This document shows, piece after piece, positions 14,578 to 40,951 of a DNA stretch of 64,000 nucleotides. A model generated the notes under the pieces. That model saw only the letters and a list, made by a program, of their open reading frames with translations. It had not been told where the DNA came from and did not search any database. The stretch comes from Parcubacteria group bacterium Gr01-1014_38 (GTDB lineage: Bacteria > Patescibacteriota > Andersenbacteria > UBA10190 > CAIZMI01), in contig VMFP01000004.1 in NCBI GenBank assembly GCA_007376145.1, positions 70,988 through 134,987 of the forward strand, given 5' to 3'. A program made the position numbers and the translations under genes. Within the stretch, counting starts at the first letter, position 1; every line of letters starts with the position of its first letter.

Positions 14578-14582
14578 ACACC

Positions 14583-16112: not shown

Positions 16113-16119
16113 GCCAGGA

Positions 16120-17902: not shown

Positions 17903-18619
17903 TCATGGCTTTCGCGCGACGGCTGCGTAGTGAAGGGCGAAGAGCTTCCGGCGATCCGTGTGCCCATCAAACCACAGTGCGAGAGCGTTGGAAGCCCGGA
18001 GGAGACCAGACGTCAGAGGCCAGATCACGGGAACTCCGTACGCGAGCCCAACCAGGAACGTCGCGGGGATCAACTGCAGAAAACAGAATATTCCCCCGGA
18101 TGGCTCCAGAGAAAGTACTGCGAACCCCCCGTCTTCGAGAAGGCGACGAAGCCCATACGTAGTATACCGATAAAAATCGTTCGGCTCGTTGTGAAGATAT
18201 CCAAGATGCGGCACGGTGATAATCAGCTTTCCGCCGGGGCGAAGGACACGGCGGATTTCCGCAAGCGCCCTTCTCGGGTCAGGGATATGTTCGAGAACCT
18301 CCGCACACAGAACCGTGTCGAAACTCCCATCCGGAAGCGGCATGGCCTGGACGTCCCCAAGGTAGTCGAGCGCTGGGTGAGTGCGGGTGACGTCGAGACT
18401 GCGATACTCCTGCACATGAGGGAGAAGCACCGATCGGTAGGTGAGCGTTCCAGCACCGGCATCAAGTGCACGCCCGCGGGCATGGGCGGCGGCTGCGCGG
18501 CGCACATCCCGGAGAAGCGCCAGACCCGCGGCGCTTCGCGCCCAAAATGCCTCCGTCCCCGCAAGGTCCGTGGAGGACTGCGCCCACTGTCGCTTGATGC
18601 GCTCGTGTAACGAACTCAT
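17903..18619 (-). CDS. class I SAM-dependent methyltransferase (Methyltransf_11-like)
   Basis: RALDAGAGTLTYRS...VLCAEVLEHIPDP...LRPGGKLII. Confidence 0.7.
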   Translation of the reverse strand: MSSLHERIKRQWAQSSTDLAGTEAFWARSAAGLALLRDVRRAAAAHARGRALDAGAGTLTYRSVLLPHVQEYRSLDVTRTHPALDYLGDVQAMPLPDGSFDTVLCAEVLEHIPDPRRALAEIRRVLRPGGKLIITVPHLGYLHNEPNDFYRYTTYGLRRLLEDGGFAVLSLEPSGGIFCFLQLIPATFLVGLAYGVPVIWPLTSGLLRASNALALWFDGHTDRRKLFALHYAAVARKP

Positions 18620-25344: not shown

Positions 25345-25348
25345 AGAA

Positions 25349-26272: not shown

Positions 26273-26274
26273 GG

Positions 26275-27504
26275 TTACCGTGGGGAAGTTCGTGAGGGCG
26301 CGGAGGACGCCGACCCGACAACCAGTTGGGGGAAACGCTGCATCGTCTCCGACATGTCGCGGACGCTCTCGAGGTCCAGCCGCTGCTTCGCTGCAGTATA
26401 GAGCCGTTCATGAAAAGAGACCACGGCGTCAAGATCAAAGTAGCGGCGGATACCATCTCGCCCAGCGCGGCCGATTCGCTCCATCTGGGCGCGGTCTGCG
26501 CACAGCCGCCGGATGGCAGAACCCAGTGCGCGAACGTCTCTTGGGGGGACGAGGAGACCGTTCACGCCGTCGCGAAGAACTTCCTTCCGCATGTCGACGC
26601 GGAATCCGACGAGCGGCAAGCCTGCCGCGAGCGCATGGATGACCGTCATGTTGATTCCTTCGTTGACGGACGTACGGAGCACCAGGTCGGCACGACGGAA
26701 GAGCCGGTCGAGATCCCGGCGGTAGCCGGCGAAGAGGACGGCGTGGCCCACACGGCACGCCCGGACGAGCGAGCGAAGCCGGCGTTCCTCCGGACCCTCG
26801 CCGACGAGAAGGAGACGAGCGTGCGGCCATTCCGCAAGGACATGCTGCCAGGCTTGGATGGCATACTGGTGGCCCTTGTCGACATGGAGCCGCCCGATGG
26901 AGAGCGCGACGGGGTACGCGCCCGCGAGATCAAACGGTGGAAGCGTGAACTCTGGGTCCCTCCGGAGCGCGAACATCGGCGCCAGATCCCCCACGATCTC
27001 GACCGCTTTCACTTTCCTCGACGCAATCCCCGTCCCCTCCAGCTCCCACGGAGAAAAGGTGAGATAGAGCGTGACCCAGCGTTGGAGGAGGACGAGGGCA
27101 CGGAGGTACCACGACGCCGACTGCGCTCGCGTCGCCACGATCGTGTGTACGAACGGAACGCGGGCGAGACGCGCCCCGAGCGTTCCCAGAAGGAAGGAGA
27201 CGGGGAGGAAGGCGTGAACGATATCTGGCTGCTCACGCCGAAGAAGCAGACAGAGCCGAAGGAGAACGGGAAAGACTCGGAGAAGGCTTCTCCGGGGACT
27301 CAACGTCACGACCCGCAGTCCGCACTCCGGCAACATGGTCTCATACGCCCCGCCCGCGTGAAGCGCCACCACCGCGATCCGTACACCGCGGGAAACGAGA
27401 CACCTGCCGAGCTGCGCGATGTACTCCTGGGCACCACCAGCAACGAGCGTATCAATGAGGATCACGACTCGTGGATTCTGGCGCATGTTGTTTAGGACCC
27501 TCAC
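26275..27504 (-). CDS. GT4-family (GT-B) glycosyltransferase
   Basis: VVILIDTLVAGGAQEY..., then C-terminal ...SVNEGINMTVIHALAAGLPLVGFRVD... Confidence 0.7.
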   Translation of the reverse strand: MRVLNNMRQNPRVVILIDTLVAGGAQEYIAQLGRCLVSRGVRIAVVALHAGGAYETMLPECGLRVVTLSPRRSLLRVFPVLLRLCLLLRREQPDIVHAFLPVSFLLGTLGARLARVPFVHTIVATRAQSASWYLRALVLLQRWVTLYLTFSPWELEGTGIASRKVKAVEIVGDLAPMFALRRDPEFTLPPFDLAGAYPVALSIGRLHVDKGHQYAIQAWQHVLAEWPHARLLLVGEGPEERRLRSLVRACRVGHAVLFAGYRRDLDRLFRRADLVLRTSVNEGINMTVIHALAAGLPLVGFRVDMRKEVLRDGVNGLLVPPRDVRALGSAIRRLCADRAQMERIGRAGRDGIRRYFDLDAVVSFHERLYTAAKQRLDLESVRDMSETMQRFPQLVVGSASSAPSRTSPR

Positions 27505-27510
27505 GCGAGG

Positions 27511-28470
27511 TCAGTCTCGCGGTGCACGCAGTGTGATCGGCGGTGTGTTCGTGCTCGACGTCTCGCGCACGGGACGGTTGGCCCCCGGCACGAGAGGAGA
27601 AGACGGAGCTCCTGCTTCGGCCTGTTCCGCTGCCTGCACGACGTTTTCCAGGAGCAGACAGACGGTCATGGGACCGACGCCGCCCGGGACAGGCGTCAGC
27701 GCACCGGCGATCGGCCGAACCGACACTTCGTCGACGTCACCGTGCCACCCCTCGGCGGTGTGGTGCGCTCCGGCATCAACCACGATTGCTCCCGGACGGA
27801 CATGCGCGGCCGTGATGCCGCGGGGCATTCCTGTAGCAGCGACGAGCACGTCAGCGGACCGCGTGAGCGAGGCCAAGTCGCGCGTGCCCCGGTGGCAGAC
27901 GGTCACCGTTGCGTTCGCGTCGGGACGTTTCTGCAGCAGAAGAAGCGCCAGCGGCCTGCCGACGAGCCGCCCCCGTCCCACGACGACGACGTGCCGACCG
28001 GCGATGGTGATGCCGCTCCGGAGCAGGAGCTGATGGATTCCCGCCGGCGTCGGGGGGGGGAAGCGCGGTACGCCAAGCGCGAGGAGACCGAGGTTCTCCG
28101 GATGGAGACAGTCGACGTCCTTCAACGGCGCGATGTGCGCGAGGAGATCCGCCTCCGCATGTCCAGCCGGGAGGGGAAGCTGAAGGACGATCCCGTGGAT
28201 GTCTGGTGCGGTGCTCCACGCCGTCAGGAGATCGCGGAGCTCATCGTCGGAGGTCGCGGCTCCTCGCTGCTCGACAATCGTTCGAATGGCGAGGCGGCGG
28301 GCGGCATATTCCTTGTTCTTCACAAAGACGTGGATGACGGGATCCGTTCCCACCACGAGAAGCGCCAGCGTCGGTATCACGCCGCGCCGGACGAGCCCGT
28401 CGACGCGCGGAGCCAACTCCGCGTGGAGCGCGCGCGCAACCTGCCGGCCATCGAGGAGACGGGCGGACAT
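27511..28470 (-). CDS. folD: bifunctional methylene-THF dehydrogenase / methenyl-THF cyclohydrolase
   Basis: From MSARLLDG: ...KNKEYAARRLAI...GIVLQLPLP...VVVVGRGRLVGRPLALLL...PVPGGVGPMTV. It has a Pro-rich C-terminal tail. It contains a G8/C8 run at 28052-28059. Confidence 0.8.
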   Translation of the reverse strand: MSARLLDGRQVARALHAELAPRVDGLVRRGVIPTLALLVVGTDPVIHVFVKNKEYAARRLAIRTIVEQRGAATSDDELRDLLTAWSTAPDIHGIVLQLPLPAGHAEADLLAHIAPLKDVDCLHPENLGLLALGVPRFPPPTPAGIHQLLLRSGITIAGRHVVVVGRGRLVGRPLALLLLQKRPDANATVTVCHRGTRDLASLTRSADVLVAATGMPRGITAAHVRPGAIVVDAGAHHTAEGWHGDVDEVSVRPIAGALTPVPGGVGPMTVCLLLENVVQAAEQAEAGAPSSPLVPGANRPVRETSSTNTPPITLRAPRD

Positions 28471-28472
28471 GC

Positions 28473-29795
28473 TCAAGGTGGCGGGAACGCGCGGGCAAAC
28501 GCGCGGACCTCCTCCCGAAGGCGCGTGAGACGATCGGTGTCCGAGCGATGCAGGAGCGTCTCTGCAATCCAATCTGCGATTCTCCGCATCGCGTCCTCTC
28601 GCATGCCGCGGGTCGTGAGCGGCGGCGTACCCAGGCGCAGTCCGGAAGGATCCTTGGGCGGCCGCGGGTCATCGGGAATCGTGTTTTTATTCGCGGTGAT
28701 GCCGACCAAGTCGAGGGCGGCTTCTGCCTCGGTCCCCGTCAGACCGTGCGGACGCAGGTCAAGAAGGAGAAGGTGCGTGTCTGTTCCGCCGGTGACGAGC
28801 CGGAAGCCGTGCTCCGCGAGACGCTCGGCAAGGGACCGGGCGTTGGCAACAACCTGCCGCGCATAGACGGAGAACTCCGGCTGCAGCGCTTCCTGAAAGC
28901 ACACGGCTTTCGCCGCCGTGACGTGGTCGTGCGGCCCCCCCTGGATTCCGGGGAACACGGCGCGGGCGATCGCCGCGCTGTGCTCCCGCCGGCTGACAAT
29001 GACGCCGCCGCGCGGCCCGCGAAGCGTCTTGTGCGTCGTGAACGTCACGACCGGCGTGAAGGGAAATGGCGAGGGGTGAGCACCACCGACGATGAGGCCA
29101 GCGACGTGGGCGATATCCGCGACGTGGAGAGCACCGACCTCGTCGGCAATGGACTGCAGGGCGCGGAAGTCGATCGCACGCGGATAGGCACTTGCCCCGG
29201 AGAACAGGATGGCGGGACGGACGCGCCGCGCCAGCGCGCGGATCGCGTCGAAGTCGAGGTGCTCGGTCGTCGGATCGAGTGCGTACTGATGCGCCTCATA
29301 GGCGATGCCGGAAAACGCCACCCGATGCCCGTGGGAGAGGTGACCACCGTGTGTCAGCTGAAGCCCAAGGAGGCGACTCCCAAGCGGCGCGAGGCCCAAA
29401 AGAACCGCAATGTTTGCGGACGTGCCGGAATACGGCTGGACATTCGCATCCCATTCCAAGCACTCCTTTCCACGGAGGAACAAACGAAGCGCGCGGGCGC
29501 AGGCAAGATCTTCGACCGCGTCGATCACTTCCTGCCCCCCGTAGTAGCGCTGGCCAGAGTACCCCTCCGAATACTTATTCGTGAGAACCGACGACAGCGC
29601 CGCCCGTACCGCCGGCGATGCGTAGTTTTCTGAAGGGATGAGTTCAAGCCCATCACGCTGGCGCTCTTCCTCCGCGATCAGAAGTCTCTCGACCTCCGGA
29701 TCGGTCCGGACGAGAGGGTCTGCCGACACCTCGTGCAGGGCCGCGCGGGCATCACGCGGGCCTACCGGCTCTCCGAACGTGGCTGCGGAAATCAT
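28473..29795 (-). CDS. glyA: serine hydroxymethyltransferase
   Basis: ...LELIPSENYASPAVRAALSSVLTNKYSEGY...TTHKTLRGPRGG... has the PLP-lysine motif. Confidence 0.9.
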   Translation of the reverse strand: MISAATFGEPVGPRDARAALHEVSADPLVRTDPEVERLLIAEEERQRDGLELIPSENYASPAVRAALSSVLTNKYSEGYSGQRYYGGQEVIDAVEDLACARALRLFLRGKECLEWDANVQPYSGTSANIAVLLGLAPLGSRLLGLQLTHGGHLSHGHRVAFSGIAYEAHQYALDPTTEHLDFDAIRALARRVRPAILFSGASAYPRAIDFRALQSIADEVGALHVADIAHVAGLIVGGAHPSPFPFTPVVTFTTHKTLRGPRGGVIVSRREHSAAIARAVFPGIQGGPHDHVTAAKAVCFQEALQPEFSVYARQVVANARSLAERLAEHGFRLVTGGTDTHLLLLDLRPHGLTGTEAEAALDLVGITANKNTIPDDPRPPKDPSGLRLGTPPLTTRGMREDAMRRIADWIAETLLHRSDTDRLTRLREEVRAFARAFPPP

Positions 29796-29951: not shown

Positions 29952-32270
29952 CTATCGCGCCCGACGGAGGTAGACCCGGATGGGAGTCCCGTTCCCACTG
30001 CCGATTTCTCGCTCGAGCCGGTACTTGGCCTCGAGCGCCGACGGGATGCGCGGGTACCGCCCATACGTGTCGTCGAAAAGCTTCTCGGTCACGACTGCCG
30101 CGATGTCGCCACGCTCGAGCATGTCGGCAAGGGGACCAAAATGTCCGTGGTACCCCGGATTCGGCCGGCCGCGCCACGTAGGCTGATCGGCGGACGGGTG
30201 CGCCAGCCTCCCGGGAACAGACCGGTCGGCAAACAGCGGAATCAACACCGCCGCTGCGAGCACCTGGTCATCCGGCGCCGTGAGCGAGCGAACGGCCGTG
30301 ATGGATTCCCGGACGGCGTGCATCGCGAGCGTGCCAGCGTAGGGACGAGCGTGAAGCACCGGGTACCACGCCGCGGTGAGTATCAGGATAAGCCCAGCAA
30401 CAACGGCCGCTCGCGCCGCCAGCCGTTCCGTGGAGCCCCATGGGCTGACGCTTGGGGACTCCGGGCGAAGCTTGGTGAAAAGCGCCTCCAGCACGCGCCC
30501 GAACCCTACGCCCGCAAGCAGGACAAGCCCCGGAAGGAACTCCGCGGCATACTTCTCGTTCGTCTTATAGAAAACGGCGTACGCGAGCGCAGGAGGAATG
30601 AGGAACGAAACGACTTCGAGCGTTTGCGTGCCGCGAAGCCCTCCGGGGAATCCCCGCCCAAGAATCCAGATGGCGAGTGGAACGGAACCGACCACGGCGG
30701 GGACCCACGCATACGCCGACCGCCACTCCCCAGAAAGATAGGGGAAAAAGAATGCTGCCGCAATTCCTCCCGCGACGATGGTGCCCGTCACGCGCCCGCG
30801 GGATGTTCGCCCAGGATACGCCAGTCCCGCAAGCGTCAGCAGTGGAACGAAGTCGCCGAAGATGCGACGCCAGCGACTGATCTTTTGGAGCACGCTTCCC
30901 CTGGACCGTTCGATAAACTCCTGGAGAAGCTCGACGAGAATGCGGGCCCCGTAAACGGCCTCTGGAACGAGTGCCGATGCGGCGAGCCCGAGGAAAACGG
31001 GAACGGATACCAGGGTAGCCGCACGCCGGAAAAACTCTCGAGGGGAGCGCGTCCGAAGCAGGAGCGCGCCTTGGAGAAACCAGAAGATCGCGCTCCAACG
31101 CGTGAGTACACCGAGTCCAAGGAGACCGCTCGCAATCACCAACAGGGAGAACGGAGCAGGTGTCTGCTGGCGCGCGCGAAGAATGCAGATGATCCCGAGG
31201 AGGATGGGAACGGCCATCAGTTGTTCGGTCAGCACCAGGACGCTGTGTGCCGCGGGTGCCGGCGCCAGAAAACCGATCAGAAGCACACCGAGCGCTGCAG
31301 ACGGTCCTACCAGCTGGCGCGCCACGCGCGCCAGGAGTACGGTGCTGAACAGTCCTGCCGCGATGATCAGCAGGCGTGGCTGCAGCGGGTCGGTAAAGGG
31401 CCGGAGTTGATGCGCAAGACCGACGAGCCCGATCAGCACCGGCGATTTCCAGAAATACGGCTGGTGAATATTCCACGTGACACCGTTGTACACGTACGAC
31501 TGCTCGTCGTTCACGAGCGGGTGCTGCACCGCAAACCACCACCGCGCGGCTGCACCGGCAATGAGAAGACCGCACACGATGGCAATCCGCCCCCACCGGG
31601 AATTGAAACGCGTGAAGAGGTGCGCAGTTCTGCGGAGCAGAAATACGGCCACGGAAAGAAGCGCGCCGACACCAACGATGCTTGCGCCGGTCGCAACGGT
31701 CCTCCCAATGTTCGGCGAGAGTGCTTCCCATCGCGGACGCGGTGTGAGGAGTTGAGAAGAAAGCGCGAATGGACGGCGCCCGTCACGCAACGAGCGCCCC
31801 TTTCCCACGCGAAGCAGATGCGCATTCGTGTCTCCTTTCTCATCGCGTTCGTCCACCCACAGACGTACTGGTTGGTCCGGCGATACTCCCCGCGTCGCCA
31901 CCTCGATTGCGACTGTCCGCCCGGCCAGGTTCTGTGGCAAGGCAATACTGAGTTCGACAACATCTCCAGCACCCCGTACCCTCGGCGCCTTGGACGCAAC
32001 AAGTGAATCGCCAGCGACGCCGCTGCGGACCGCGATCCATACCCGTCCCTTCCGAGGCCGATGGTCAGTAAAAAGAGCGAGCCGACCAGTAAATTCCTTT
32101 GGGACTTTCAGGGGCTGCACCAATCGTTCATCGTCAGAGACGAACGCAAACATGCCACTTCGTCCCACCTCTTCCATAACCACTCCAAGAGGACGCGTCA
32201 GCCACCACACTCCGTACCCGACTGCAACAGCGACGAGAAGTGCGATGCCACCGTGCAGGCGTCGAGTCAT
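29952..32270 (-). CDS. GT-C fold membrane glycosyltransferase, ArnT/PMT_2-like, with extra N-terminal extracytoplasmic domain
   Basis: 772 aa. It has LVNDEQSYVYNGVTW (DE motif) and many TM helices. Confidence 0.6.
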   Translation of the reverse strand: MTRRLHGGIALLVAVAVGYGVWWLTRPLGVVMEEVGRSGMFAFVSDDERLVQPLKVPKEFTGRLALFTDHRPRKGRVWIAVRSGVAGDSLVASKAPRVRGAGDVVELSIALPQNLAGRTVAIEVATRGVSPDQPVRLWVDERDEKGDTNAHLLRVGKGRSLRDGRRPFALSSQLLTPRPRWEALSPNIGRTVATGASIVGVGALLSVAVFLLRRTAHLFTRFNSRWGRIAIVCGLLIAGAAARWWFAVQHPLVNDEQSYVYNGVTWNIHQPYFWKSPVLIGLVGLAHQLRPFTDPLQPRLLIIAAGLFSTVLLARVARQLVGPSAALGVLLIGFLAPAPAAHSVLVLTEQLMAVPILLGIICILRARQQTPAPFSLLVIASGLLGLGVLTRWSAIFWFLQGALLLRTRSPREFFRRAATLVSVPVFLGLAASALVPEAVYGARILVELLQEFIERSRGSVLQKISRWRRIFGDFVPLLTLAGLAYPGRTSRGRVTGTIVAGGIAAAFFFPYLSGEWRSAYAWVPAVVGSVPLAIWILGRGFPGGLRGTQTLEVVSFLIPPALAYAVFYKTNEKYAAEFLPGLVLLAGVGFGRVLEALFTKLRPESPSVSPWGSTERLAARAAVVAGLILILTAAWYPVLHARPYAGTLAMHAVRESITAVRSLTAPDDQVLAAAVLIPLFADRSVPGRLAHPSADQPTWRGRPNPGYHGHFGPLADMLERGDIAAVVTEKLFDDTYGRYPRIPSALEAKYRLEREIGSGNGTPIRVYLRRAR

Positions 32271-32322
32271 CGTTGCTTTAAGACCTACGGCAGGCGCGGC
32301 ACAATGCTGGACACGTCAGCGT

Positions 32323-33120
32323 TCACGACTCTTTAGGAACAGTCCGAACAACGACGGCCTCTGTTGCTTTCAGGGTCGCCGACATCCCGCGTCTGTCACG
32401 CAGCGCGGCATGGTGGCGCCACACGTGTCGCGCGAACGCGCGCAAGAACTTCGGTATCTCTCGTGTCAGACGCAGTTTCGAGCCCCCAAAGCGCCGGTCG
32501 TGAAATGCCACCGGAACTTCACTCACCGCATACCCGCGCACATAGGCGAGGAGGATCATTTCAAACAGCAGCGCATTCGTTTTTTCCGTCGTCGCAATCG
32601 CGTGCCAGGTCTCGCGCCGCATGAATCGAAAATTCGCGGAAAAGTCTCCGATGGGGATACCCGTGATCGTGCGCACGATACGATTGCCCAACCTGCTGAC
32701 GAATCGCTTGATCCAGATCTGACGATTCGACGCCTCGTAGACGCTGCCGGCAATATGCCGACTGCCGACAACGAGGTGGTATCCTTCACGTATCCGGGCG
32801 TACAGACGAAGGAGGTCCCAAGGATCAAACGAGAGATCCGCGTCCATCGAGGCAATCACCTTCCCGCGGCTTTCGTCATAGCCAACGCGGAGAGCGGCGC
32901 CGATGCCTTCTTTCCGTTCCTTTGTCACGAGACGGACCGGATATCCAGCGTCGCACAATGCCTGCGCCAGTGCTCCCGTACCGTCCGGCGATCGGTCATC
33001 AACAATCACGATCTCGTAGGAAAGCCCATGAAGAGCGTCTGCAACCGCCGGCACAAGACGCGCGATGTTTTCTCTTTCGTTGTACGTGGGGATAACGAGC
33101 GACAGTTCGAGAGCATTCAT
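32323..33120 (-). CDS. GT2 polyprenol-phosphate sugar synthase (Dpm1/GtrB-like)
   Basis: LSLVIPTYNERENI...IVIVDDRSPDGT...MDADLSFDP. Confidence 0.8.
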   Translation of the reverse strand: MNALELSLVIPTYNERENIARLVPAVADALHGLSYEIVIVDDRSPDGTGALAQALCDAGYPVRLVTKERKEGIGAALRVGYDESRGKVIASMDADLSFDPWDLLRLYARIREGYHLVVGSRHIAGSVYEASNRQIWIKRFVSRLGNRIVRTITGIPIGDFSANFRFMRRETWHAIATTEKTNALLFEMILLAYVRGYAVSEVPVAFHDRRFGGSKLRLTREIPKFLRAFARHVWRHHAALRDRRGMSATLKATEAVVVRTVPKES

Positions 33121-34361
33121 GACGTGCCTTGGAGAGACTTGGTAACACGAAGATTCTGCGCACCCACGCCAGCCATTTCAGGAGCAGTAAAGACATCGAC
33201 GATTTCCTTCATTTCTTCCTCGGTCAATTCAGGATTATTGCCGACATACAACCCTTGCGCGTGAATGAGCGCGGCATTTGATCGAGACAAGCTCCCCGCA
33301 AGTTGGCCCATGTATTTTCGAAAAAATGGTTGCTGCGTCATGTCGCCCCCCACGATCGGACGAGTTTCAATGCGCCCCTCGCAAGCGGTGACCAGCGAAC
33401 GATGGAGACTCTCCGACTGACAGATAACAGGCAACGCGAAATTAGAAAATGTCTCAAGATGATCATGGCGAAGCGGATAATAGCGATCTGTCAGTCCGTA
33501 GATTGCCGACGCCATGCGATGAAAATTCTTCTCGCGCGTGTGTACAATCTCGGAAAGGTACGGAAGCCCCGCGTTGCCGAGAAATCCCGCAATCTCCGTG
33601 GGACGGAGATTGTACCCAAGGTCGTAAAACGTGTAGCGGGAGTAAAACGTTGAGGCAACCCGATGCTTTTCTCGCAGCGCTGTTTGCGTGGTTCGATCGA
33701 GATTCCGATCCCACCCGTGGGCGCGTACAATGCGCACCATGTTTGCGAGCTCTTGGTCATCCGTGCAGACCGCTCCTCCCTCAATCGTCGAGAACTGATG
33801 CCCGACATAGAATGAGAATGTACTCGCAAGTCCAAAATTCCCAAGGCGCGTTCCCTGGTAGACGGTGCCGAGCGATTCACACGCGTCTTCCAGAAGAACA
33901 ATGCCCCGCTCCGCGCACACATCGCGAATGCGATCAATGTCATCGCACCATCCGAGTACATCGGTAAGAAACAACAGACGCAGCGGATAGGCTTCAAGCT
34001 GATCGAGGAGAGTGCGGCTCGAAACATTCAAGGTATCGAGTTCGCAGTCGATCGGCACGGCGGTGAGTCCCAGTTGCAGTAACGGCATGACATTGGTGGA
34101 CCACGTGAGTGCGGAAAAGCCGACGCGATCGCCCGCGCGAATCCGTTCAAGATTGAACAGCGCCTGCATGAGCGCAAGATTTGCTGAACTTCCGCTGTTG
34201 ACCATCACGCAGTGCTTTCGTTCTTGGAAGATCGCAAAGTTCTTCTCGAACGTCTCGCACGCCGGACCCATGCTGAGCTTTTCGGTGTGGAGGAGAAAAT
34301 CGGCGAGTGCTTCCCGCACCTCCTGCTCGCGATAGAAGCTTGACTTGACGAGGGGAATCAT
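33117..34361 (-). CDS. DegT-family PMP-dependent sugar 3-dehydrase-like enzyme (ColD/E1/SpnQ type: active-site His replaces the PLP-binding Lys)
   Basis: ...VMVNSGSSANLA...FGLASTFSFYVGHQFSTIEGGAV... A His stands where aminotransferases of this fold (e.g. FSFHETKNITSGEGG in the ORF at 24160) have Lys. There is no C-terminal Cys cluster, which makes it ColD/SpnQ-like rather than E1-like. Confidence 0.6.
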   Translation of the reverse strand: MIPLVKSSFYREQEVREALADFLLHTEKLSMGPACETFEKNFAIFQERKHCVMVNSGSSANLALMQALFNLERIRAGDRVGFSALTWSTNVMPLLQLGLTAVPIDCELDTLNVSSRTLLDQLEAYPLRLLFLTDVLGWCDDIDRIRDVCAERGIVLLEDACESLGTVYQGTRLGNFGLASTFSFYVGHQFSTIEGGAVCTDDQELANMVRIVRAHGWDRNLDRTTQTALREKHRVASTFYSRYTFYDLGYNLRPTEIAGFLGNAGLPYLSEIVHTREKNFHRMASAIYGLTDRYYPLRHDHLETFSNFALPVICQSESLHRSLVTACEGRIETRPIVGGDMTQQPFFRKYMGQLAGSLSRSNAALIHAQGLYVGNNPELTEEEMKEIVDVFTAPEMAGVGAQNLRVTKSLQGTS

Positions 34362-34489
34362 ACGATGTGTACGCTCACCGATATGCGGCTAGTGTCCGCG
34401 GAGAGAGAGGATACGTCAATGTTCGTCTCGTGGGTGGGCCCTGACGGCACGTTGCCACGTTCGGCGTTTGTTCCCATGCTGCGTACCAC

Positions 34490-36988
34490 GTGCGCATGAC
34501 ACCCGAACCTTCCTTCCCATGGCCGCGCATATCCGTGGCGGTCATCGTCGCCGTGGCGGTGCTCCTCGGCGTCGTCGCGCTTCGTCTTTCCCTCGTGCAG
34601 ACGGTCCTCAAAACGACGGCGCCGCACACGGACACGGATATCGAGCGCTTCGGTGGCTTGAAGACAGTCGGCCAGTCGTTTGTAAGCCCTTCAGACGGAC
34701 TCGCGGAAATTTCGTTCCGGCTCCGGTCGCCGCTTCCCGTACGATGGTTCCCGCTCTTCTTCCACCTTCGACACGGCCGCTTTGCCACGCGTGACCTCCG
34801 GACCGTCGTGCTCTTGCGGACGGACGTTGAACCGGACGGGGTCGTCACGACGCGTTTCGCCCCGCTCACGAAAAGCAGAGGGAAACCATACGCGTTCGTG
34901 CTTGACGCGCCGTACGCCCCGAGCGGGACATTCGCCGCCTCCCGGCAAATCGACGGATCACTTTACGGGGACGGAACACTGTTCCGGGGAACCGCCGTCC
35001 GCCAGGGAGATTTGGAATTTTCCCTGGGCACGCAATCCGCACTTGGGCGTGTGCTCTGGACCCGTTTCCTTGCGTGGGCAGCGGAGGTGCGCCGCGTCCC
35101 TGGGTTGATGGTGGCACTGTTGCTTGGCAGTACCGTGACGTTGCTTCTGACGATGGCGACAGTGTTTGGCGGCATCGTGACGCTCCTTGCGCTCTGGGCT
35201 CCTTGGTGGACGCAACGCCTCCACCGCACACGCGCGTGGCTTCTTCCGGTCGCACTGGGCACGCTCGCTGTTCTCCACATCGCGCTTCATCTCCCCTTCG
35301 CCCTCTCCTATCCGATTTCGAACGATGAGGGGGCATACCTCATGGACATCCAAAACCTCCGCGTTGGCGCATGGCCGTTTCTCCACACACTCGCGAAGGG
35401 ACCGCTGTTTCTTACGCTGTTCGCGCCGGTTGCATTCAGCTTTCCCGAAGCACTCCTCCCGGCGCGCTTGTTCATTGCCGTGACTTCGGCGTTGATCATT
35501 GTGCCGCTCTACCTCCTCGGCGTCCGCCACAGCGACAGAACTGCCGGGCTTTTCGCCGCTGCGCTGTGGGCGTTTTCTCCCGCCGTCATCGGGCAGACGA
35601 CACACGTCCTTCTCCAACCGCTCGCAGTGCTCCTGGTCGCACTGGCGCTTCTTACCATTTCTCGACAGCGCGATGACACTCCTTGGAGAACGAGATGGGC
35701 GTATGGCGGGGGCGCGCTGCTCGCCGCCGCCTACCTGACCCGTGTCTCTTCCGTCGCGTTCCTCCCCAGTGCGCTTCTCCTCCCGTTCGTGATGCATCCC
35801 CGGCGCGCGGCTTGGCGCACGGCTGCCCGCACTGGTCTCGGTTTCGCACTGACCCTTCTCGTCGCCGCCCTGCTTTTTCTCCCCATCCTCGGTGCGGTCC
35901 GAACGGCCATCACATTCAACGTGGAGGCGGTGCTCATCGGCCAGGCCCGAAACGCGGGTGGGCCCGACGTCGCCGCATTCTGGCCACCACGTGAACTCCT
36001 CGAGCGAATCAGTGCCTATGGAAGCACCCTGTTCCGGACGGGACTCCCGGTCGTGATACTCTGGTGGGCATTTCTCTTAAGTCAGGTCCGCACCGTACTC
36101 CGCCTGCCCGGATGGACCGCGGCGCTGGCATTTCTTGGTGGAGCGCTTCCCCTCCTTTTGGAACTCCAGCGCAACACATACTTCTTCACGGACGACAGCA
36201 ACGCGCCATTCGCGGCACTCGCTCGCATCGCCGCACCGGCGTTCGTCCTTCTGGTGGCCGCACGCCTCCTGACCCTACGCCGCGAGTCGGGAGACCCCGC
36301 CACACTGCGCCGCGCGTGGCGGGGTCTCCTCCTTGGGGGTGGAAGCTGGCTGGCGCTGACCGTCGTCTATGCATATTTCGGGCGTTTCCGGCAGCACTAC
36401 CACATGGAATTTCTTCTTCCGTATATCCTCGGTGCAGCACTCTTCCTTCGGGAGATTCTTGTGGCCGAGAGCGGGCAGGCGCGGGCGCGCTGGCGCACGT
36501 TCGCCCGCCGGGTGCTTGGGCCGCTCGTCGCCGGGGCGCTCGCCGCCGCGACCTTTCTCCTCTACACGCCGACGAAAACGCAATCACACACGGGATCGAT
36601 CGCTGTCGCGACCGCCCACCGCGTCGCGGACATCATCGCATCCGTTTCGGGACCGAGGGAAGAAATCCTCACCGCCCAGGGAATCTTTCCCTTCCTCGCT
36701 GGCCGTTTTCTCCCGTTCGGCGCCTCGCACCCCGGCTGGTACCTCGAAGAACGCGTTGGAACAGTGACGCCCGCCATGCGCCGTCTGTTCCTGCCTGACA
36801 AATCTGTCTTGAGGACGTATGTTCGCGACAAGCCGATCCGCCTCGTCGCGATCGACCGCCGGACGTGGGAAGTCTACTTCCAATTCGACGCAGACATGCG
36901 TGCGCTCGTCGCGGAGTACTTCAAGCTCCTCGCGGAAGTTCCGAATCCGTCCGAGGAACAACCGGTGGAAATTTGGATCCGAAAATGA
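34490..36988 (+). CDS. GT-C fold membrane glycosyltransferase, ArnT/PMT_2-like
   Basis: 832 aa. It has YPISNDEGAYLMDIQN (DE motif) and many TM helices. Confidence 0.6.
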   Translation: MRMTPEPSFPWPRISVAVIVAVAVLLGVVALRLSLVQTVLKTTAPHTDTDIERFGGLKTVGQSFVSPSDGLAEISFRLRSPLPVRWFPLFFHLRHGRFATRDLRTVVLLRTDVEPDGVVTTRFAPLTKSRGKPYAFVLDAPYAPSGTFAASRQIDGSLYGDGTLFRGTAVRQGDLEFSLGTQSALGRVLWTRFLAWAAEVRRVPGLMVALLLGSTVTLLLTMATVFGGIVTLLALWAPWWTQRLHRTRAWLLPVALGTLAVLHIALHLPFALSYPISNDEGAYLMDIQNLRVGAWPFLHTLAKGPLFLTLFAPVAFSFPEALLPARLFIAVTSALIIVPLYLLGVRHSDRTAGLFAAALWAFSPAVIGQTTHVLLQPLAVLLVALALLTISRQRDDTPWRTRWAYGGGALLAAAYLTRVSSVAFLPSALLLPFVMHPRRAAWRTAARTGLGFALTLLVAALLFLPILGAVRTAITFNVEAVLIGQARNAGGPDVAAFWPPRELLERISAYGSTLFRTGLPVVILWWAFLLSQVRTVLRLPGWTAALAFLGGALPLLLELQRNTYFFTDDSNAPFAALARIAAPAFVLLVAARLLTLRRESGDPATLRRAWRGLLLGGGSWLALTVVYAYFGRFRQHYHMEFLLPYILGAALFLREILVAESGQARARWRTFARRVLGPLVAGALAAATFLLYTPTKTQSHTGSIAVATAHRVADIIASVSGPREEILTAQGIFPFLAGRFLPFGASHPGWYLEERVGTVTPAMRRLFLPDKSVLRTYVRDKPIRLVAIDRRTWEVYFQFDADMRALVAEYFKLLAEVPNPSEEQPVEIWIRK

Positions 36989-37125: not shown

Positions 37126-37992
37126 CTAGCCCCGGCTGCGCACGATGAGATCGGCGATCAGACCCATGAGTCCAATTTGAATTCCGACGACGACAAGCAC
37201 GATGCTGGCATCGGAGATGTTTCGCTCGAGCGTGAGGGTGCGAGCCATGTTGGCGATGCCGAGTCCCAAAAACAGGAGGCTGGGGACCGCGAAGAATCTT
37301 AAGGGGCGAAAATACGTCACGATGCGAACGATGAGCGTCAAGAAGTTCGGAAACTCCTGGAACAGACCGCGTCGAAGGGTGATGGTGGATTTCCCGACGC
37401 GCGGCGCGTAGACGACGGGCACCCACCGAACGCCGAGTTTGTTTGTCAGCGCGGCGAGCGTCGCCGTCGTCGTGAACGAGAAGCCGTCGGGAAACAGATG
37501 GAAGAATCGCTCAACGAATTCTCGTCGCATCACGCGCATGCCGGAGTTGAGATCCGGAATGCGCCGACCGACGAGAAACGCCGCCAGTGCGGAAACGATC
37601 ACCTTTCCGGGACGCCGCAGCAGCGGAAACGCCGCGACGTTCCCAACGCGAACGCCGACGACCATCTCGACACCGTCGGTCAACGTCTCCAGGAGGCGTG
37701 GGAAGTCATCCACCGGATACGTACCGTCCGAGTCAATGATGCCAAGGAGGTCGCCGCGCGCAGCGCGGATACCGGTTTTCAGCGCCGCCCCATACCCGCG
37801 GTTCTCCGGGTGGCGGACGACCATCACCGCCGAATGCCGACGAAGAATTTCTGGAGTGTTGTCGGTAGAACCGTCGTCCACGACAAGAATCTCCGACGGC
37901 ATGGAAAGCCTCTCGCGCATACGGAGAAGCCCCGCCAGACTTTTCTCGAGTCCTTGGGCCTCGTTGTAGGTCGGCACGATAATGCTGAGCAC
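37126..37992 (-). CDS. GT2 polyprenol-phosphate glycosyltransferase (GtrB/CsbB-like) with C-terminal TM helices
   Basis: LSIIVPTYNEAQG...ILVVDDGSTDNT...IDSDGTYP, plus two C-terminal hydrophobic helices. Confidence 0.8.
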   Translation of the reverse strand: MLSIIVPTYNEAQGLEKSLAGLLRMRERLSMPSEILVVDDGSTDNTPEILRRHSAVMVVRHPENRGYGAALKTGIRAARGDLLGIIDSDGTYPVDDFPRLLETLTDGVEMVVGVRVGNVAAFPLLRRPGKVIVSALAAFLVGRRIPDLNSGMRVMRREFVERFFHLFPDGFSFTTTATLAALTNKLGVRWVPVVYAPRVGKSTITLRRGLFQEFPNFLTLIVRIVTYFRPLRFFAVPSLLFLGLGIANMARTLTLERNISDASIVLVVVGIQIGLMGLIADLIVRSRG

Positions 37993-40951
37993 GAACGCAG
38001 TCTATGCGAGGGGCCGCAGTTCGTCGAGACGTCTCTTGGAACCCGCTCGGCCTTCCAAGCAACTCTCCCGCGCGGTTGCGCTCGAAGATGATCGCCGGGA
38101 TGATACGAGAGTCGTGAGCATCCGAGGATGGAACGGAGTGGCCTGGTGGCGTGGGCGCGTGCGGATCCTGACGCGACGAGAATCCATCAAAGCGGCGGCG
38201 TGTTTTTCCCTCCTCGTCAGTCTCTTCTTCGGTGCCACCTGGCTCCAAGGCCGGCTTCTCCTCTTCTTCGACCTTCTGTTCATCACCGCGCCCTTTGAAG
38301 ACATCTTTGCGCGGTACCAACGGGCCGGCCAGCTCCCGATCTGGGTTCCCGAGATGCAGAGCGGGTACCCCCTTCTCGGAGCACCGCACATGAACTTCTT
38401 TTACCCCGTGCACCTGTTGCTTCGGCAGTTCCTTCCCGGCGTGGTCACTCTCAACCTCTCGCTCGCGTTTCACCTCTTCATCGCCGGGTACGGGATGTGG
38501 CTCTTCCTTCGCGCACACCGACTTTCGTGGGCAAGTGCGCTGACCGGTGGCATCCTCTACGCCCTCGGCGCGCATCTCACGGGGCGCTTCGGCCTCCTCA
38601 ACATTGTCTTGCCTGTCTCCTGGCTGCCGTTGCTCCTCTGGACATTCCAGCGTCTCTGGGACCGGCCGACGCTCCCGCGCGCGATCGCCTTGGCCGCCAT
38701 CGCCTCGCTCCACGTCCTCTCCGGCTCACCGCAGATGTCGGTGATCGCTGCGAGCGTGGTGGGCCTGTACGCCCTCGGTCTCCTTGCCACGTCGCGCCGA
38801 GAGCCGCGGCGTCACGCACGCCGCGGCGCCCTGCTCTTGGTGAGCGTGGCGGCAACCCTCGGACTCGTGGCGGTGCAGCTGGTCCCTGGGCTTTCAAACC
38901 TGCGATTCACCGATCGGAATGAACCGCTCTCGCGGCGCGAACTCCTCGAATTCGGGTACCCGCCGTGGCAGACGTTGACCTGGGCATTCCCAGACGCCTT
39001 TGGCCATGATCGGCAGTACTTCGGCGCGAAAAACGAAACGGAACTCGCGTTCTCGTTCGGCGCCGTCGGCTGGCTCCTCGTATTTGGCGGAACGTTGTTC
39101 ATCCGCCGCCTGGACAGGCCACTGCGCGTGTTCCTCGTGCTGCTCGCGATCGTCGGCGTGTCGCTCGCTCCCGGAGAACATTCGCCGGTGTACCGCTGGC
39201 TCGTCGAACATCGTCTCATCCAGCACTTCGCGCAACCGGCGCGCGTCCTGATCATGCTCCACTTCGCGGGGAGTGTGGCCGGCGCCGCGTTCGTCGCTGC
39301 GCTGCCGACACTCCGCTCACGCCACCGTGCGCTTCTCACCATTATTGCGGCCGCCGTCCTTTTCAGCACCCTCGCCGGCGCGGTCACGCTCCTTCCTTCG
39401 TCCATCGCGGAACGAACTACTGCAGCACTTCGTCACTCTCCCTGGCGGGTCGTCACGCCGCTCGCCGCGTTCCTCGGCGTGGCCCTGCTCCTGCTGCCCG
39501 GGTCTTGGCGGTCGTGGCGGACAGCCCTGCTCCTCGGCGTGAGCAGCGCAGAACTCCTCGGTGTCGCCTGGTGGTTCAACACGAGCGAAGACGCGGCGGT
39601 GGCACTCCAACGCCCCTGGGTTCTCCAATACCTCGGTGGTCCTCCACCACAACCCCGACTCTACGAACGCAGTAACCTCATCGTCACTCGCCCGGCAGAC
39701 TATACGCCCACCCTCTGGCACCGTCCCACGAACCTGCGCTCCGCACGTCAATCCTTCATTGCGCAGCAAGACGGACTGAAGGGAGTGACCGTTCAGTTCT
39801 CCTGGGACCGGCAGGTGGTCCACCGCGGCACGCTCCGGCTGACCCTGGAAGATGCCGAGGGCGTTCCGTTGGCGACTGCGGAGCGCGCGTATGCCGACGC
39901 CCAAGACGCTCAACCGCTCGAATTCCCTTTCGCGCGCCAGCCGCACTCCTTGGATCGTGCGTACCGCCTGGTGCTCGCGTGGCAAGACGCGACCGGTCCC
40001 GGACCAAGTCTCTACCTCTACGGAAACCTGTCAGGAGACTACGACCCGACGGGAGCGTTCGAGACCTGTTCTCCGCACTGTGCTCCCCTGGCCTCCCCCG
40101 AACACGTATACGGCTTCGACCTGAATTTTGTTCCGCGGTATGCCCCACCCACGGCGAACCGGCACCTCCAGCGGCAGCTTCTCCTCCCGCACATGGGAGC
40201 CGCCCTCGGCATCGAAACGACGCGGTGGGCGGGAGCCCTCGCGCTCGCGCATCAGAAACAGTACCTCCGCGAAATCGGTGAAGACCACGAAGGCTACCCA
40301 ACGCGCTTCAATCCGCTGCCCCAGATCAACCGTCCGCTCTTGGATCGCTACAGCATCGGGTACCTTCTCGTCTCCCACCCGTTCCACGAAGGTCCTCTTA
40401 CTTTGGAAGGCATCGAACGCATCAGCGAAACGCGGATTGATGATCGGCGGGTCGCCCTGTACCGGAACCGGCACGCCTTTCCGCGGTTTCACTTTGCGGC
40501 ACAGACCGTCGTCGCCGGCGATAACCCGGAAGCACTCCGTCGTCTTACCGGAAAGCACGCACTGCCCAAAGAGGCGGTGACCGTCCAAGGACCGGGTATT
40601 ACTGCCTGGCCGCCGGTGGAAACGTTCGATACGTCGGGGAGGGTGACGCTGCAGTCATACCGTCCAACCGAGGTGGTCTTCACCGTCGACACCGCCGCGC
40701 GTGCCTTCCTTGTTCAGAGAGACGCCTACCACCCGGGGTGGCACGTGTTCGTGGATACTGACGAGGCACCATTGATTCCTGTCGACGTTATCTTCCGTGG
40801 CGTGGTGGTTCCCCCCGGCATGCATACGATCCGGTTTGCCTTCGACACACGCTCGGTCTACGCCGGACTCGGCATCACCCTCGCCACGATCGCCTTCCTC
40901 GCGCTTTTGGGAATTCCGCGTCTCTGGCACCGATTGACGTTCTTCCGCTGA
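37982..40951 (+). CDS. YfhO-family polytopic membrane protein (start probably downstream of 37982)
   Basis: ...DLLFITAPFEDIFARYQRAGQLPIWVPEMQSGYPLLGAPH... is the YfhO first-loop pattern. It has a large C-terminal extracytoplasmic domain. The listed start overlaps the 5' end of the divergent GT2 gene by 11 nt, so the true start is likely later. Confidence 0.6.
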   Translation: MLSTNAVYARGRSSSRRLLEPARPSKQLSRAVALEDDRRDDTRVVSIRGWNGVAWWRGRVRILTRRESIKAAACFSLLVSLFFGATWLQGRLLLFFDLLFITAPFEDIFARYQRAGQLPIWVPEMQSGYPLLGAPHMNFFYPVHLLLRQFLPGVVTLNLSLAFHLFIAGYGMWLFLRAHRLSWASALTGGILYALGAHLTGRFGLLNIVLPVSWLPLLLWTFQRLWDRPTLPRAIALAAIASLHVLSGSPQMSVIAASVVGLYALGLLATSRREPRRHARRGALLLVSVAATLGLVAVQLVPGLSNLRFTDRNEPLSRRELLEFGYPPWQTLTWAFPDAFGHDRQYFGAKNETELAFSFGAVGWLLVFGGTLFIRRLDRPLRVFLVLLAIVGVSLAPGEHSPVYRWLVEHRLIQHFAQPARVLIMLHFAGSVAGAAFVAALPTLRSRHRALLTIIAAAVLFSTLAGAVTLLPSSIAERTTAALRHSPWRVVTPLAAFLGVALLLLPGSWRSWRTALLLGVSSAELLGVAWWFNTSEDAAVALQRPWVLQYLGGPPPQPRLYERSNLIVTRPADYTPTLWHRPTNLRSARQSFIAQQDGLKGVTVQFSWDRQVVHRGTLRLTLEDAEGVPLATAERAYADAQDAQPLEFPFARQPHSLDRAYRLVLAWQDATGPGPSLYLYGNLSGDYDPTGAFETCSPHCAPLASPEHVYGFDLNFVPRYAPPTANRHLQRQLLLPHMGAALGIETTRWAGALALAHQKQYLREIGEDHEGYPTRFNPLPQINRPLLDRYSIGYLLVSHPFHEGPLTLEGIERISETRIDDRRVALYRNRHAFPRFHFAAQTVVAGDNPEALRRLTGKHALPKEAVTVQGPGITAWPPVETFDTSGRVTLQSYRPTEVVFTVDTAARAFLVQRDAYHPGWHVFVDTDEAPLIPVDVIFRGVVVPPGMHTIRFAFDTRSVYAGLGITLATIAFLALLGIPRLWHRLTFFR

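Follow-up and report, generated by a model that had tools for sequence, protein, structure and literature searches.

The window analysed here, a 64,000-nucleotide stretch of DNA from Parcubacteria group bacterium Gr01-1014_38, contains an intact gene for a 414-residue protein of the DegT fold in which histidine occupies the position of the usual Schiff-base lysine. The protein, which we refer to as DegT(His), is probably a PMP-dependent 3-dehydratase of nucleotide sugars that works in the manner of ColD, and its gene is tightly linked to one for a GT2 glycosyltransferase. Enzymes of this type are already known, and some homologs are labelled as 3-dehydrases by automatic pipelines; the branch to which DegT(His) belongs is itself uncharacterised. 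The gene and its active-site motif are as follows.

33117-34361, minus strand: DegT(His) gene, intact with an ATG start, 414 aa; predicted NDP-4-keto-6-deoxyhexose 3-dehydratase of ColD type (PMP-dependent, Fe-S-independent)
33774-33818, minus strand: active-site motif FSFYVGHQFSTIEGG, residues 182-196, with His188 (codon 33798-33800) at the position of the Schiff-base Lys

Fold, family and active site

The translated product is the hypothetical protein annotated as G01um101438_567 in Parcubacteria group bacterium Gr01-1014_38 (100% identity) and matches Pfam DegT (PF01041; DegT_DnrJ_EryC1) over residues 20-390 (8.8e-60). Its best match in the PDB by HMMER is ColD (6.8e-52), and among solved proteins the bit scores descend from ColD (180) through E1 (135) and the '3-dehydratase' 9wvy (114) to the best Lys-type aminotransferase (82), a ranking that is unchanged when the family profile is used as the query (245, 181 and 142, with Lys-type aminotransferases at 110 or below). 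An AF2 model (pLDDT 80, with the active-site loop at low confidence) has ColD as every one of its first 12 Foldseek matches in the PDB, with TM values to ColD chains of 0.72-0.79; by both Pfam and AF2/Foldseek the protein thus has the aspartate-aminotransferase-type (DegT) fold. All His-type sequences stay together in an NJ tree rooted on the WecE of the window, and by bit scores and tree alike the protein is nearer to the 3-dehydratases that have been characterised than to sugar aminotransferases of the Lys type. The original prediction had placed it in the ColD/E1/SpnQ class of 3-dehydrases, and this placement is supported by the Pfam match, the ColD-first bit scores, the ColD-only Foldseek matches and a fourth, genomic, feature: in 18 of 80 loci of a CPR clade (58-63% identity) an SDR closest to GDP-L-fucose synthase, a ColC relative, is located within 3 kb downstream, so that a ColC/Fcl-like reductase partner accompanies part of the family.

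The histidine predicted to stand in for the Schiff-base lysine does lie at the catalytic position. In the HMMER alignment it is opposite the residue altered in the ColD mutant chains H188N (3b8x) and H188K (2r0t), and it therefore corresponds to ColD His188; in a MAFFT alignment it is opposite E1 His220. It is invariant both in 120 of 120 homologs (57-100% identity) and in 114 of 114 full-length 50%-cluster representatives (28-58% identity), and is therefore no chance substitution. The residue preceding it is Gly187 (Ser187 in ColD) and that following it is, in the closest clade, Gln189 (His189 in ColD). The cofactor residue Asp159 and the pair Arg219/Arg334 (ColD Arg219/Arg331) are conserved in the alignments and among relatives, and ColD and DegT(His) have in common the conserved motifs HGW(D/T)RN and RP(I)V, which include the Arg219 and Arg331 equivalents; the residue-level ligand contacts are taken in part from a review (PMC8987622). 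The protein with which the active site had originally been compared is indeed a Lys-type aminotransferase, and the sole other DegT gene in the window, although its motif reads LSFHETKNITSGEGG and not FSFHETKN..., and it was wrongly described as neighbouring: at 24160-25422 it lies about 7.7 kb from DegT(His) and is not adjacent.

There are two reasons to infer a mechanism like that of ColD. First, the [2Fe-2S] cysteines of E1 are absent, as had been proposed: Cys251, Cys253 and Cys261 align with R219, L221 and L229 in the MAFFT alignment, and the only E1-ligand equivalent present is C161, which corresponds to Cys193 and is also Cys in ColD. Second, a Pfam scan of 56 ORFs of the window showed no E3-like or ferredoxin-reductase-type protein. 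E1 and SpnQ both have a [2Fe-2S] cluster and ColD does not, and ColD works by hydrolysis and glutamate, SpnQ requiring ferredoxin or flavodoxin reductases (PMC8987622). The earlier description 'ColD/SpnQ-like' is thus right in its ColD-type part and wrong in its SpnQ-like part, because SpnQ, like E1, carries the cluster (PMC8987622). In its DegT fold, its histidine and its lack of Fe-S ligands DegT(His) resembles ColD/WbdK of E. coli O55 and Y. pseudotuberculosis, along with the heptose homologs of C. jejuni; with E1 (AscC/DdhC/RfbH) it shares the fold, the His220 equivalent and possibly a gluco-configured sugar moiety.

Eight cysteines are near-invariant in the family (C35, C51, C139, C149, C161, C199, C314 and C327), and a metal or Fe-S site unlike that of E1 was considered for them. 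It was rejected, because six of the eight give way to A, S, V, T, L, F or P among representatives with 30-58% identity; only C161, common to ColD and E1, and for the most part C149 persist. We read them as core residues that hold no cluster.

The protein is nonetheless a distant relative of the enzymes that it most resembles, with 31-33% identity to ColD and 28% to E1. Characterised ColD-type enzymes are 62-67% identical among themselves, so that similarity to ColD is well short of the ortholog level, and ColD orthologs (P0229, P0268 and P0272, 60-65% identical to ColD) fall in a different clade of the NJ tree. With identities this low and a separate clade, details of the reaction could differ from those in ColD and E1.

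The conserved cassette and its neighbours

The genes discussed below are arranged as follows.

34490-36988, plus strand: GT-C glycosyltransferase of PMT_2/ArnT type, 832 aa, divergently transcribed, 11 predicted TM segments (Pfam PMT_2 1.7e-7, 32.0 bits, above 26.1)
32323-33120, minus strand: GT2 glycosyltransferase, putatively of polyprenyl-phosphate sugar synthase type, 265 aa, no predicted TM segment (Pfam GT2 2.6e-31)
29952-32270, minus strand: polytopic membrane protein with an ORF of 772 aa (annotated length 741 aa), 12 TM segments by hydropathy; candidate GT-C-type transferase
28473-29795, minus strand: SHMT (Pfam)
27511-28572, minus strand: FolD (Pfam)
26275-27504, minus strand: GT4 (Pfam)
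25349-26272, minus strand: ArnA-FT-like formyltransferase (Fmt score 129, below 201.5; closest to NF005414/ArnA)
24160-25422, minus strand: WecE-type dTDP-4-keto-6-deoxyhexose 4-aminotransferase, with Lys (NCBIfam dTDP-4-amino-4,6-dideoxygalactose transaminase, 572, above 375)
7926-9518: NDP-hexose 2,3-dehydratase
5812-6780: GFO/IDH/MocA oxidoreductase

The start codon of the GT2 gene overlaps the stop codon of DegT(His) in the sequence ATGA. The best NCBIfam matches of the GT2 protein (residues 6-222) are ArnC (82 bits), PgfS, dolichyl-P hexose transferase, AglJ and PpgS, all far below their cut-offs. The pairing of the two genes is conserved in all nine closest-clade loci: GT2 orthologs (56-60% identity) follow DegT(His) in six of these by tblastn and the other two have a GT2 by Pfam, and in seven of eight the gene next after GT2 encodes a polytopic membrane protein. 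The closest relative (locus L092, 76% identity) is syntenic, and there too SHMT follows the cassette. At a larger scale, a member of the DegT(His) family is present in 517 or more species genomes, the majority from Patescibacteria, and the unit of DegT(His), GT2 and membrane protein is found in Parcubacteria, Binatia, a 'Dormibacteraeota' MAG and unassigned metagenome contigs, with unrelated surroundings each time. A scan for promoters and terminators around the operon returned counts near those expected from shuffled sequence.

The 772-aa membrane protein has no match in Pfam, NCBIfam or the PDB (the last by phmmer) and just two homologs in a set of 5.8 billion proteins, one of them on the L092 contig; its AF2 model, built on a three-sequence alignment, has a pLDDT of 37. 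Its C-terminal 190 aa align with the PMT_2 protein at 34490-36988 (hhalign probability 59%, E 9e-5), and an NDExxY motif is common to the two. These similarities weakly suggest that it, too, may be a GT-C protein.

The genes at 24160-29795 are co-directional with the cassette and downstream of it, and could form one operon and pathway with it. Together, the DegT enzyme, the ArnA-FT-like formyltransferase, the ArnC-like GT2 and the PMT_2/ArnT-type GT-C protein are reminiscent of the Arn pathway (ArnB aminotransferase, ArnA formyltransferase, ArnC GT2 and ArnT GT-C) and of further three-component systems for glycosylation by way of polyprenyl phosphate, those with GtrB/CsbB plus GT-C. There are several differences from Arn, however. 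First, the sugar would be a 6-deoxyhexose and not a pentose. Second, the DegT enzyme that is linked to GT2 has His and not Lys. Third, neither an ArnD-like deformylase nor an ArnE/F flippase was identified among the window ORFs scanned, which were the larger ones, and none of these has a polysaccharide-deacetylase domain. Fourth, the model scores in this comparison are all far below the equivalog cut-offs.

A 2,3-dehydratase and a 3-ketoreductase of the window had been proposed to allow, together with DegT(His), a 2,3,6-trideoxy or 3,6-dideoxy sugar, and the window does encode the 2,3-dehydratase and the GFO/IDH/MocA oxidoreductase. A SpnQ-like role of this kind, C3 deoxygenation of dTDP-4-keto-2,6-dideoxyhexose leading to a 2,3,6-trideoxy sugar, could make use of the nucleotide on which SpnQ-type enzymes act, these being His-type DegT enzymes on dTDP sugars (PMC8987622), and DegT(His) possibly shares that nucleotide with them. 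We nevertheless regard it as very unlikely. The 2,3-dehydratase module is located 24-28 kb away and has its own C-methyltransferase, epimerase, GT2, carbamoyltransferase and GT-C genes; DegT(His) is not linked to it, has GT2 as its conserved partner and lacks the [2Fe-2S] motif of SpnQ-type enzymes; and the called-gene tables of seven closest-clade loci (L010 left out) list no 2,3-dehydratase. The gene arrangement does not support the trideoxy partnership, and the 3,6-dideoxy sugar stays plausible.

Proposed reaction, substrate and fate of the product

In the reaction that we propose for DegT(His), PMP would form a ketimine with C4 of an NDP-4-keto-6-deoxyhexose, His188, in place of the usual Lys, would take the C4' proton, and the 3-OH would be expelled. 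Hydrolysis of the enamine would then give NDP-4-keto-3,6-dideoxyhexose and ammonia, with PMP regenerated by L-glutamate and neither an iron-sulfur cluster nor an E3-type reductase taking part. The product would be reduced at C4 by an enzyme encoded elsewhere, or else receive an amino group at C4 from the WecE-type aminotransferase and then an N-formyl group from the formyltransferase, and either a 3,6-dideoxy or a 4-amino-3,4,6-trideoxy sugar is plausible as the outcome. The translationally coupled GT2 probably puts the product on polyprenyl phosphate, from which the GT-C-type membrane protein would pass the sugar to an envelope acceptor outside the membrane.

It counts against this scheme that no 4,6-dehydratase, nucleotidyltransferase or 4-ketoreductase adjoins DegT(His) in the window. 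No RmlB, Gmd or reductase is present in the left flank of the window (L090), and the right flank (a 4.9-kb contig) has an unrelated SDR and oxidoreductase. Three features favor dTDP-4-keto-6-deoxyglucose. First, RmlB is encoded directly upstream of the cassette in L092, where it passes TIGR01181 (411, above 365.1). Second, a glucose-1-phosphate nucleotidylyltransferase-like gene is upstream in another close locus. Third, the window encodes three users of this sugar nucleotide, namely the WecE-type aminotransferase, RmlC and the 2,3-dehydratase. We therefore put forward dTDP-4-keto-6-deoxy-D-glucose, tentatively, as the likeliest substrate, with GDP- and CDP-linked sugars as the alternatives; the likely product is dTDP-4-keto-3,6-dideoxyhexose, which would end up in a lipid-linked glycan of the envelope. 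An assignment of the nucleotide from the protein sequence itself was also attempted and was rejected: segment 236-256 is equally like ColD and E1 (8 of 21 identities to each), and other segments give mixed signals.

The GDP-linked alternative would make DegT(His) a true ColD, that is, a GDP-4-keto-6-deoxy-D-mannose 3-dehydratase in a GDP-colitose-like route. ColD is the top solved-structure match both by sequence and by fold, the Fe-S ligands are absent as they are in ColD, and the downstream SDR of the CPR clade, being closest to GDP-L-fucose synthase, points to GDP sugars for that clade. Yet the identity to ColD is about half that among characterised ColD-type enzymes, the ColD orthologs lie in another clade, and the gene context differs: neither Gmd nor a mannose-1-P guanylyltransferase (ManC) is found in the window, in the left flank or in any closest-clade locus, the closest relative instead having RmlB upstream and another close locus its glucose-1-phosphate nucleotidylyltransferase-like gene. 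Moreover, ColD is encoded in an O-antigen NDP-sugar operon, whereas DegT(His) is coupled to a putative polyprenyl-phosphate GT2. On balance it is unlikely that DegT(His) is such an enzyme.

The CDP-linked alternative would make it an E1 equivalent, a CDP-6-deoxy-D-xylo-4-hexulose 3-dehydrase, which is how JGI/IMG names several homologs (P0006, P0008, P0010 and others). RfbH (NF011936) is the best NCBIfam model for DegT(His), but its score of 198.3 bits is far below the cut-off of 423; a 'TxQPxF' segment resembles E1, but the three cluster cysteines are absent, the identity is 28% and no E3-type reductase is seen among the window ORFs scanned. In 10 of 80 CPR loci there is an upstream SDR for which CDP-glucose 4,6-dehydratase is the best or nearly the best match, and these SDRs were considered as the 4,6-dehydratase of the pathway and rejected, since they score far under the cut-offs and have STSHVYG instead of the Asp-Glu/Asp-Lys dyad. 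Nucleotidyltransferase genes are rare near DegT(His), with one within 10 kb in four of 80 CPR loci. The CDP-linked reading appears improbable.

A different possibility concerns the reaction and not the nucleotide: the enzyme might be an aminotransferase, or a dehydratase and then an aminotransferase, that yields an NDP-4-amino-(3,)4,6-(tri)dideoxyhexose. On this account the conserved cassette has no 4-ketoreductase because the enzyme aminates, and in the flanking sequence retrieved (at most 10 kb, and shorter where a contig ends) an SDR is indeed absent from eight of the nine closest-clade loci, the ninth, L092, having only RmlB. The best model for GT2 is ArnC, which handles a 4-amino-sugar derivative, and wild-type ColD reportedly aminates its own 3-deoxy product, slowly. 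SpnQ transaminates if its reductase is withheld, but ColD and E1 have no such activity under comparable conditions (PMC8987622). A separate Lys-type 4-aminotransferase is also present in the same string of genes, and a reductase partner is common in CPR relatives. We consider amination by DegT(His) to be improbable as well, and retain the hydrolytic 3-dehydratase.

A more far-reaching reading is that DegT(His), GT2 and the membrane protein constitute a self-contained, horizontally mobile cassette that taps dTDP-4-keto-6-deoxyglucose, a ubiquitous intermediate, dispenses with a dedicated reductase and hands an unusual sugar to polyprenyl phosphate so that the envelope is decorated outside the cytoplasm. 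This is a speculative proposal that we hold to be unlikely. The sugar may in that event be a 4-keto-3,6-dideoxyhexose, or a 4-amino-3,4,6-trideoxyhexose should DegT(His) carry out transamination as well as dehydration. In the window, N-formylation of the sugar might follow, which would amount to a system that modifies charge as Arn does.

Possible envelope sugars of ultra-small bacteria

If dTDP-4-keto-6-deoxyglucose is the substrate of DegT(His), the enzyme would combine a dTDP sugar with a ColD-type hydrolytic route, a combination that is not among the characterised cases, and it could serve glyco-engineering, since it would require neither an Fe-S cluster nor a partner reductase. Should the cassette also prove to be mobile and self-contained, it would contain an Fe-S-independent 3-dehydratase for dTDP sugars and follow a new logic in its downstream steps.

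The 3,6-dideoxyhexoses are rare sugars whose classical examples are antigenic determinants in a handful of Gram-negative pathogens. The occurrence of the DegT(His) family in at least 517 species-level genomes, mostly of Patescibacteria, suggests that they are common on ultra-small, host-attached bacteria, the envelopes of which are almost unstudied. The tight coupling of DegT(His) to GT2, with no reductase nearby, provides a concrete and testable handle on how the CPR envelope is decorated.

A histidine at the Schiff-base position

The target is a minus-strand ORF (33117..34361) with an ATG start, encoding a 414 aa protein whose N-terminus agrees with the family consensus and which matches a 'hypothetical protein' of Parcubacteria group bacterium Gr01-1014_38 at 100% identity; the GC content of the window is 60.7%. 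It matches DegT_DnrJ_EryC1 (Pfam, 8.8e-60) and carries the active-site motif FSFYVGHQFSTIEGG at residues 182–196. The original prediction that a His replaces the Schiff-base Lys is borne out in three ways. First, in a HMMER alignment the His lies opposite the ColD-chain residue that differs between the wild type (H) and the mutant chains 3b8x (H188N) and 2r0t (H188K), and it therefore equals ColD His188. Second, it lies opposite E1 His220 in a MAFFT alignment. Third, it is kept in 120 of 120 homologs (57–100% identity) and in all 114 full-length representatives (28–58% identity) that rank highest when 1.84 billion cluster representatives are searched exhaustively with HMMER. The window has just one other DegT gene, at 24160–25422 and about 7.7 kb from the target. 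It is of the Lys type as had been proposed, although the motif quoted for it was slightly off, the true sequence being LSFHETKNITSGEGG.

Among solved proteins ColD is the best match by sequence (180 bits), ahead of E1 (135) and 9wvy (114; deposited as 'NDP-4-keto-6-deoxyglucose-3-dehydratase'), with all Lys-type sugar aminotransferases at 82 bits or below; a family profile built from 16 sequences gives the same ranking (245, 181 and 142, the rest at most 110). The 12 best PDB matches of an AlphaFold2 model (mean pLDDT 80, pTM 0.81) are likewise ColD chains (Foldseek), which corroborates the predicted fold without discriminating, since TM-scores are similar throughout the DegT family. Invariant residues include the cofactor Asp D159, the GSS loop, and R219 and R334, the equivalents of ColD Arg219 and Arg331. 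The core claim of a sugar 3-dehydrase of the ColD/E1/SpnQ class is thus supported.

Mechanistic subtype and relation to ColD

The E1 cluster ligands Cys251, Cys253 and Cys261 lie opposite R219, L221 and L229 of the target, which keeps only the Cys193 equivalent (C161), a residue whose equivalent is also present in ColD. A Pfam scan of the 56 window ORFs revealed no ferredoxin-reductase-type (E3-like) protein. A 2022 review on nucleotide-sugar dehydratases reports a [2Fe-2S] cluster in E1 and in SpnQ; ColD, which has none, hydrolyses the enamine intermediate and regenerates PMP from glutamate (PMC8987622). Because the E1 cluster ligands are absent, the target is predicted to be ColD-type in mechanism; of the earlier description as 'ColD/SpnQ-like', the first half stands and the second does not, SpnQ being a cluster-bearing enzyme.

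Eight near-invariant Cys residues (C35, C51, C139, C149, C161, C199, C314 and C327) are peculiar to the close family. An alternative metal site formed by them was considered and dropped, six of the eight giving way to small or hydrophobic residues once identity falls below about 55%. Since A, V, T, L or F takes the place of most of them in remoter relatives, they are probably core residues.

The likeness to ColD in the missing ligands and the Arg equivalents does not extend to overall identity or to clade. The target is 31–33% identical to ColD and 28% to E1, ColD and E1 being 32% identical to each other, whereas characterised ColD-type enzymes are 62–67% identical among themselves (PMC10440746). 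The best NCBIfam model is RfbH, at 198 versus a cut-off of 423. A rough neighbor-joining tree with no bootstrap, for which the Lys-type aminotransferase of the window served as root, has E1 as its first branch and places the query family in a clade distant from that of the true ColD orthologs. We therefore reject the target as a ColD ortholog.

Gene neighbourhoods in the window and in relatives

The genes surrounding the target are as follows.

34490–36988, plus: PMT_2/ArnT-type GT-C, divergent and upstream of the target
32323–33120, minus: GT2 with no predicted TM segment
29952–32270, minus: 772-aa protein with 12 predicted TM segments, first after the GT2
within 24160–29795, minus: SHMT, FolD and GT4, in that order, after the 772-aa protein
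within 24160–29795, minus: formyltransferase, after the GT4, nearer ArnA-FT-type models than Fmt (129 versus the 201.5 Fmt cut-off)
24160–25422, minus: WecE-type Lys aminotransferase, passing the dTDP-4-amino-4,6-dideoxygalactose transaminase equivalog (572 > 375)

The target stop and GT2 start codons overlap (ATGA), implying translational coupling, and the genes from the GT2 through the aminotransferase are co-directional with short gaps. The best full-length NCBIfam matches of the GT2, all far below cut-offs, are polyprenyl-phosphate sugar synthases (ArnC, PgfS, dolichyl-phosphate hexose transferase, AglJ and PpgS). The GT-C and the 772-aa protein are weakly similar in a C-terminal domain (hhalign probability 59%, E 9e-5), and an NDExxY motif occurs in both. 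From the gene order we infer that the neighbourhood follows an Arn-like scheme, in which a sugar aminotransferase, a formyltransferase, a Pol-P GT2 and a GT-C are interspersed with one-carbon enzymes. These housekeeping-type enzymes, SHMT and FolD, lie co-directionally amid glycan genes and may serve specifically to provide N10-formyl-THF for making an N-formylated amino sugar.

Nine loci make up the closest clade (at least 69% identity), the window and relatives L092, L005, L007–L010, L093 and L094, from Parcubacteria, Binatia, a 'Dormibacteraeota' MAG and unassigned metagenome contigs. A GT2 of ~230–265 aa directly follows the DegT(His) gene in all nine, six of these being 56–60% identical to the window's GT2 (tblastn), and a polytopic membrane protein of 520–770 aa comes next in seven of the eight where the contig continues. 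Beyond this cassette the surroundings are unrelated from locus to locus, and no SDR occurs in the flanks, retrieved to as much as 10 kb, except in L092. That locus, the closest relative (76% identity), has the same membrane protein (767 aa) and SHMT downstream, and directly upstream a gene that passes the dTDP-glucose 4,6-dehydratase equivalog (411 > 365.1) with RmlB hallmark motifs. Upstream of the gene in L005 is an apparent 487-aa fusion (2438–3901) of a glucose-1-phosphate nucleotidylyltransferase-like domain (residues 5–245) and a GT2/AglJ-like segment (residues 316–452).

The CPR clade (58–63% identity, 80 loci counted) is arranged differently. In eighteen loci an SDR is encoded on the same strand no more than 3 kb downstream, and its best matches are GDP-L-fucose synthases (155 bits to 7ll6; 199–220 bits to the Fcl model, below its cut-off of 500); ColC belongs to this Fcl family. 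In 10 of the 80 a second SDR of ~310 aa lies directly upstream (e.g. L063 9022–9951 and L038 9049–9990, with eight others). CDP- and dTDP-glucose 4,6-dehydratase models score best for it, far below cut-offs, and STSHVYG stands in place of the dehydratase Asp-Glu or Asp-Lys dyad, so that the acid/base dyad is absent. The downstream arrangement fits the expectation for a pathway in which a 3-dehydratase and then an epimerase/reductase lead to a 3,6-dideoxyhexose, and no other contextual evidence supports the family function as strongly.

Proposed role and other sugar modules

The target is most likely a PMP-dependent, Fe-S-independent 3-dehydratase, which would convert an NDP-4-keto-6-deoxyhexose to the NDP-4-keto-3,6-dideoxyhexose with His188 as acid/base and glutamate regenerating PMP. 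Sequence comparison of the target does not settle the nucleotide. We tentatively favor dTDP-4-keto-6-deoxy-D-glucose, at somewhat short of even chances, because RmlB adjoins the gene in L092, L005 has a Glc-1-P nucleotidylyltransferase-like gene, and the window encodes three other enzymes using that intermediate; for the CPR clade, with its Fcl-like downstream partner, the substrate may instead be GDP-linked. Either a 4-reductase encoded elsewhere or the aminotransferase and formyltransferase further downstream would finish the product. The finished sugar would then go onto polyprenyl phosphate through the GT2, and from there to an envelope acceptor through a GT-C-type protein. No reductase accompanies the conserved cassette in the retrieved flanks of the closest-clade loci, and a more novel but less probable reading is consequently that a keto- or amino-sugar is delivered directly.

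The 2,3-dehydratase and 3-ketoreductase proposed as partners of the target lie at 5.8–9.5 kb, in a separate module that nothing ties to it. This module (5241–16112) contains:

RmlC-type epimerase (passes TIGR01221) and a GFO/IDH/MocA candidate 3-ketoreductase
TylC3-type sugar C-methyltransferase and NDP-hexose 2,3-dehydratase
its own GT2, a NodU-type carbamoyltransferase and two PMT_2 GT-C proteins

We take it to resemble the dTDP-mycarose (2,6-dideoxy-3-C-methylhexose) gene set; sugars this deoxygenated and C-methylated are familiar mainly from antibiotic pathways rather than from envelope glycans. A further module (61541–64000, continuing past the window end on flanking contig L091) contains:

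61541–61996: small cupin
61999–63282: second TylC3-type C-methyltransferase
next: extended SDR, 375 aa, whose SSSEIYG motif resembles the STSEVYG of UDP-xylose synthases
beyond the window: GFO/IDH/MocA oxidoreductase

An AsnB-type asparagine-synthase amidotransferase (18616–20517), flanked by four SAM-methyltransferase genes (16009–21424) in the glycan region, may act on a sugar acid, for instance by amidating it. Overall the window forms an island in which a small polyprenyl-phosphate sugar synthase-like GT2 is paired at least five times with one or two large GT-C proteins of YfhO or PMT_2 type (991–4155; 9528–16112; 29952–36988; 37126–43287; 51057–53636; 57975–61255), each pair adjoining different sugar-modifying genes, which suggests many parallel lipid-linked envelope decorations.

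Scanning one genome per GTDB species located relatives at no fewer than 517 loci, overwhelmingly Patescibacteria among the matches listed (Levy-, Roizman-, Gottesman-, Woese-, Saccharibacteria and others). NCBI names the homologs DegT-family aminotransferases or hypothetical proteins, and IMG names some 'CDP-6-deoxy-D-xylo-4-hexulose-3-dehydrase'; our literature search found no paper tying Patescibacteria to 3-dehydrases or dideoxyhexoses. The enzyme class of the target is known, and the branch to which the target belongs is widespread and uncharacterised.
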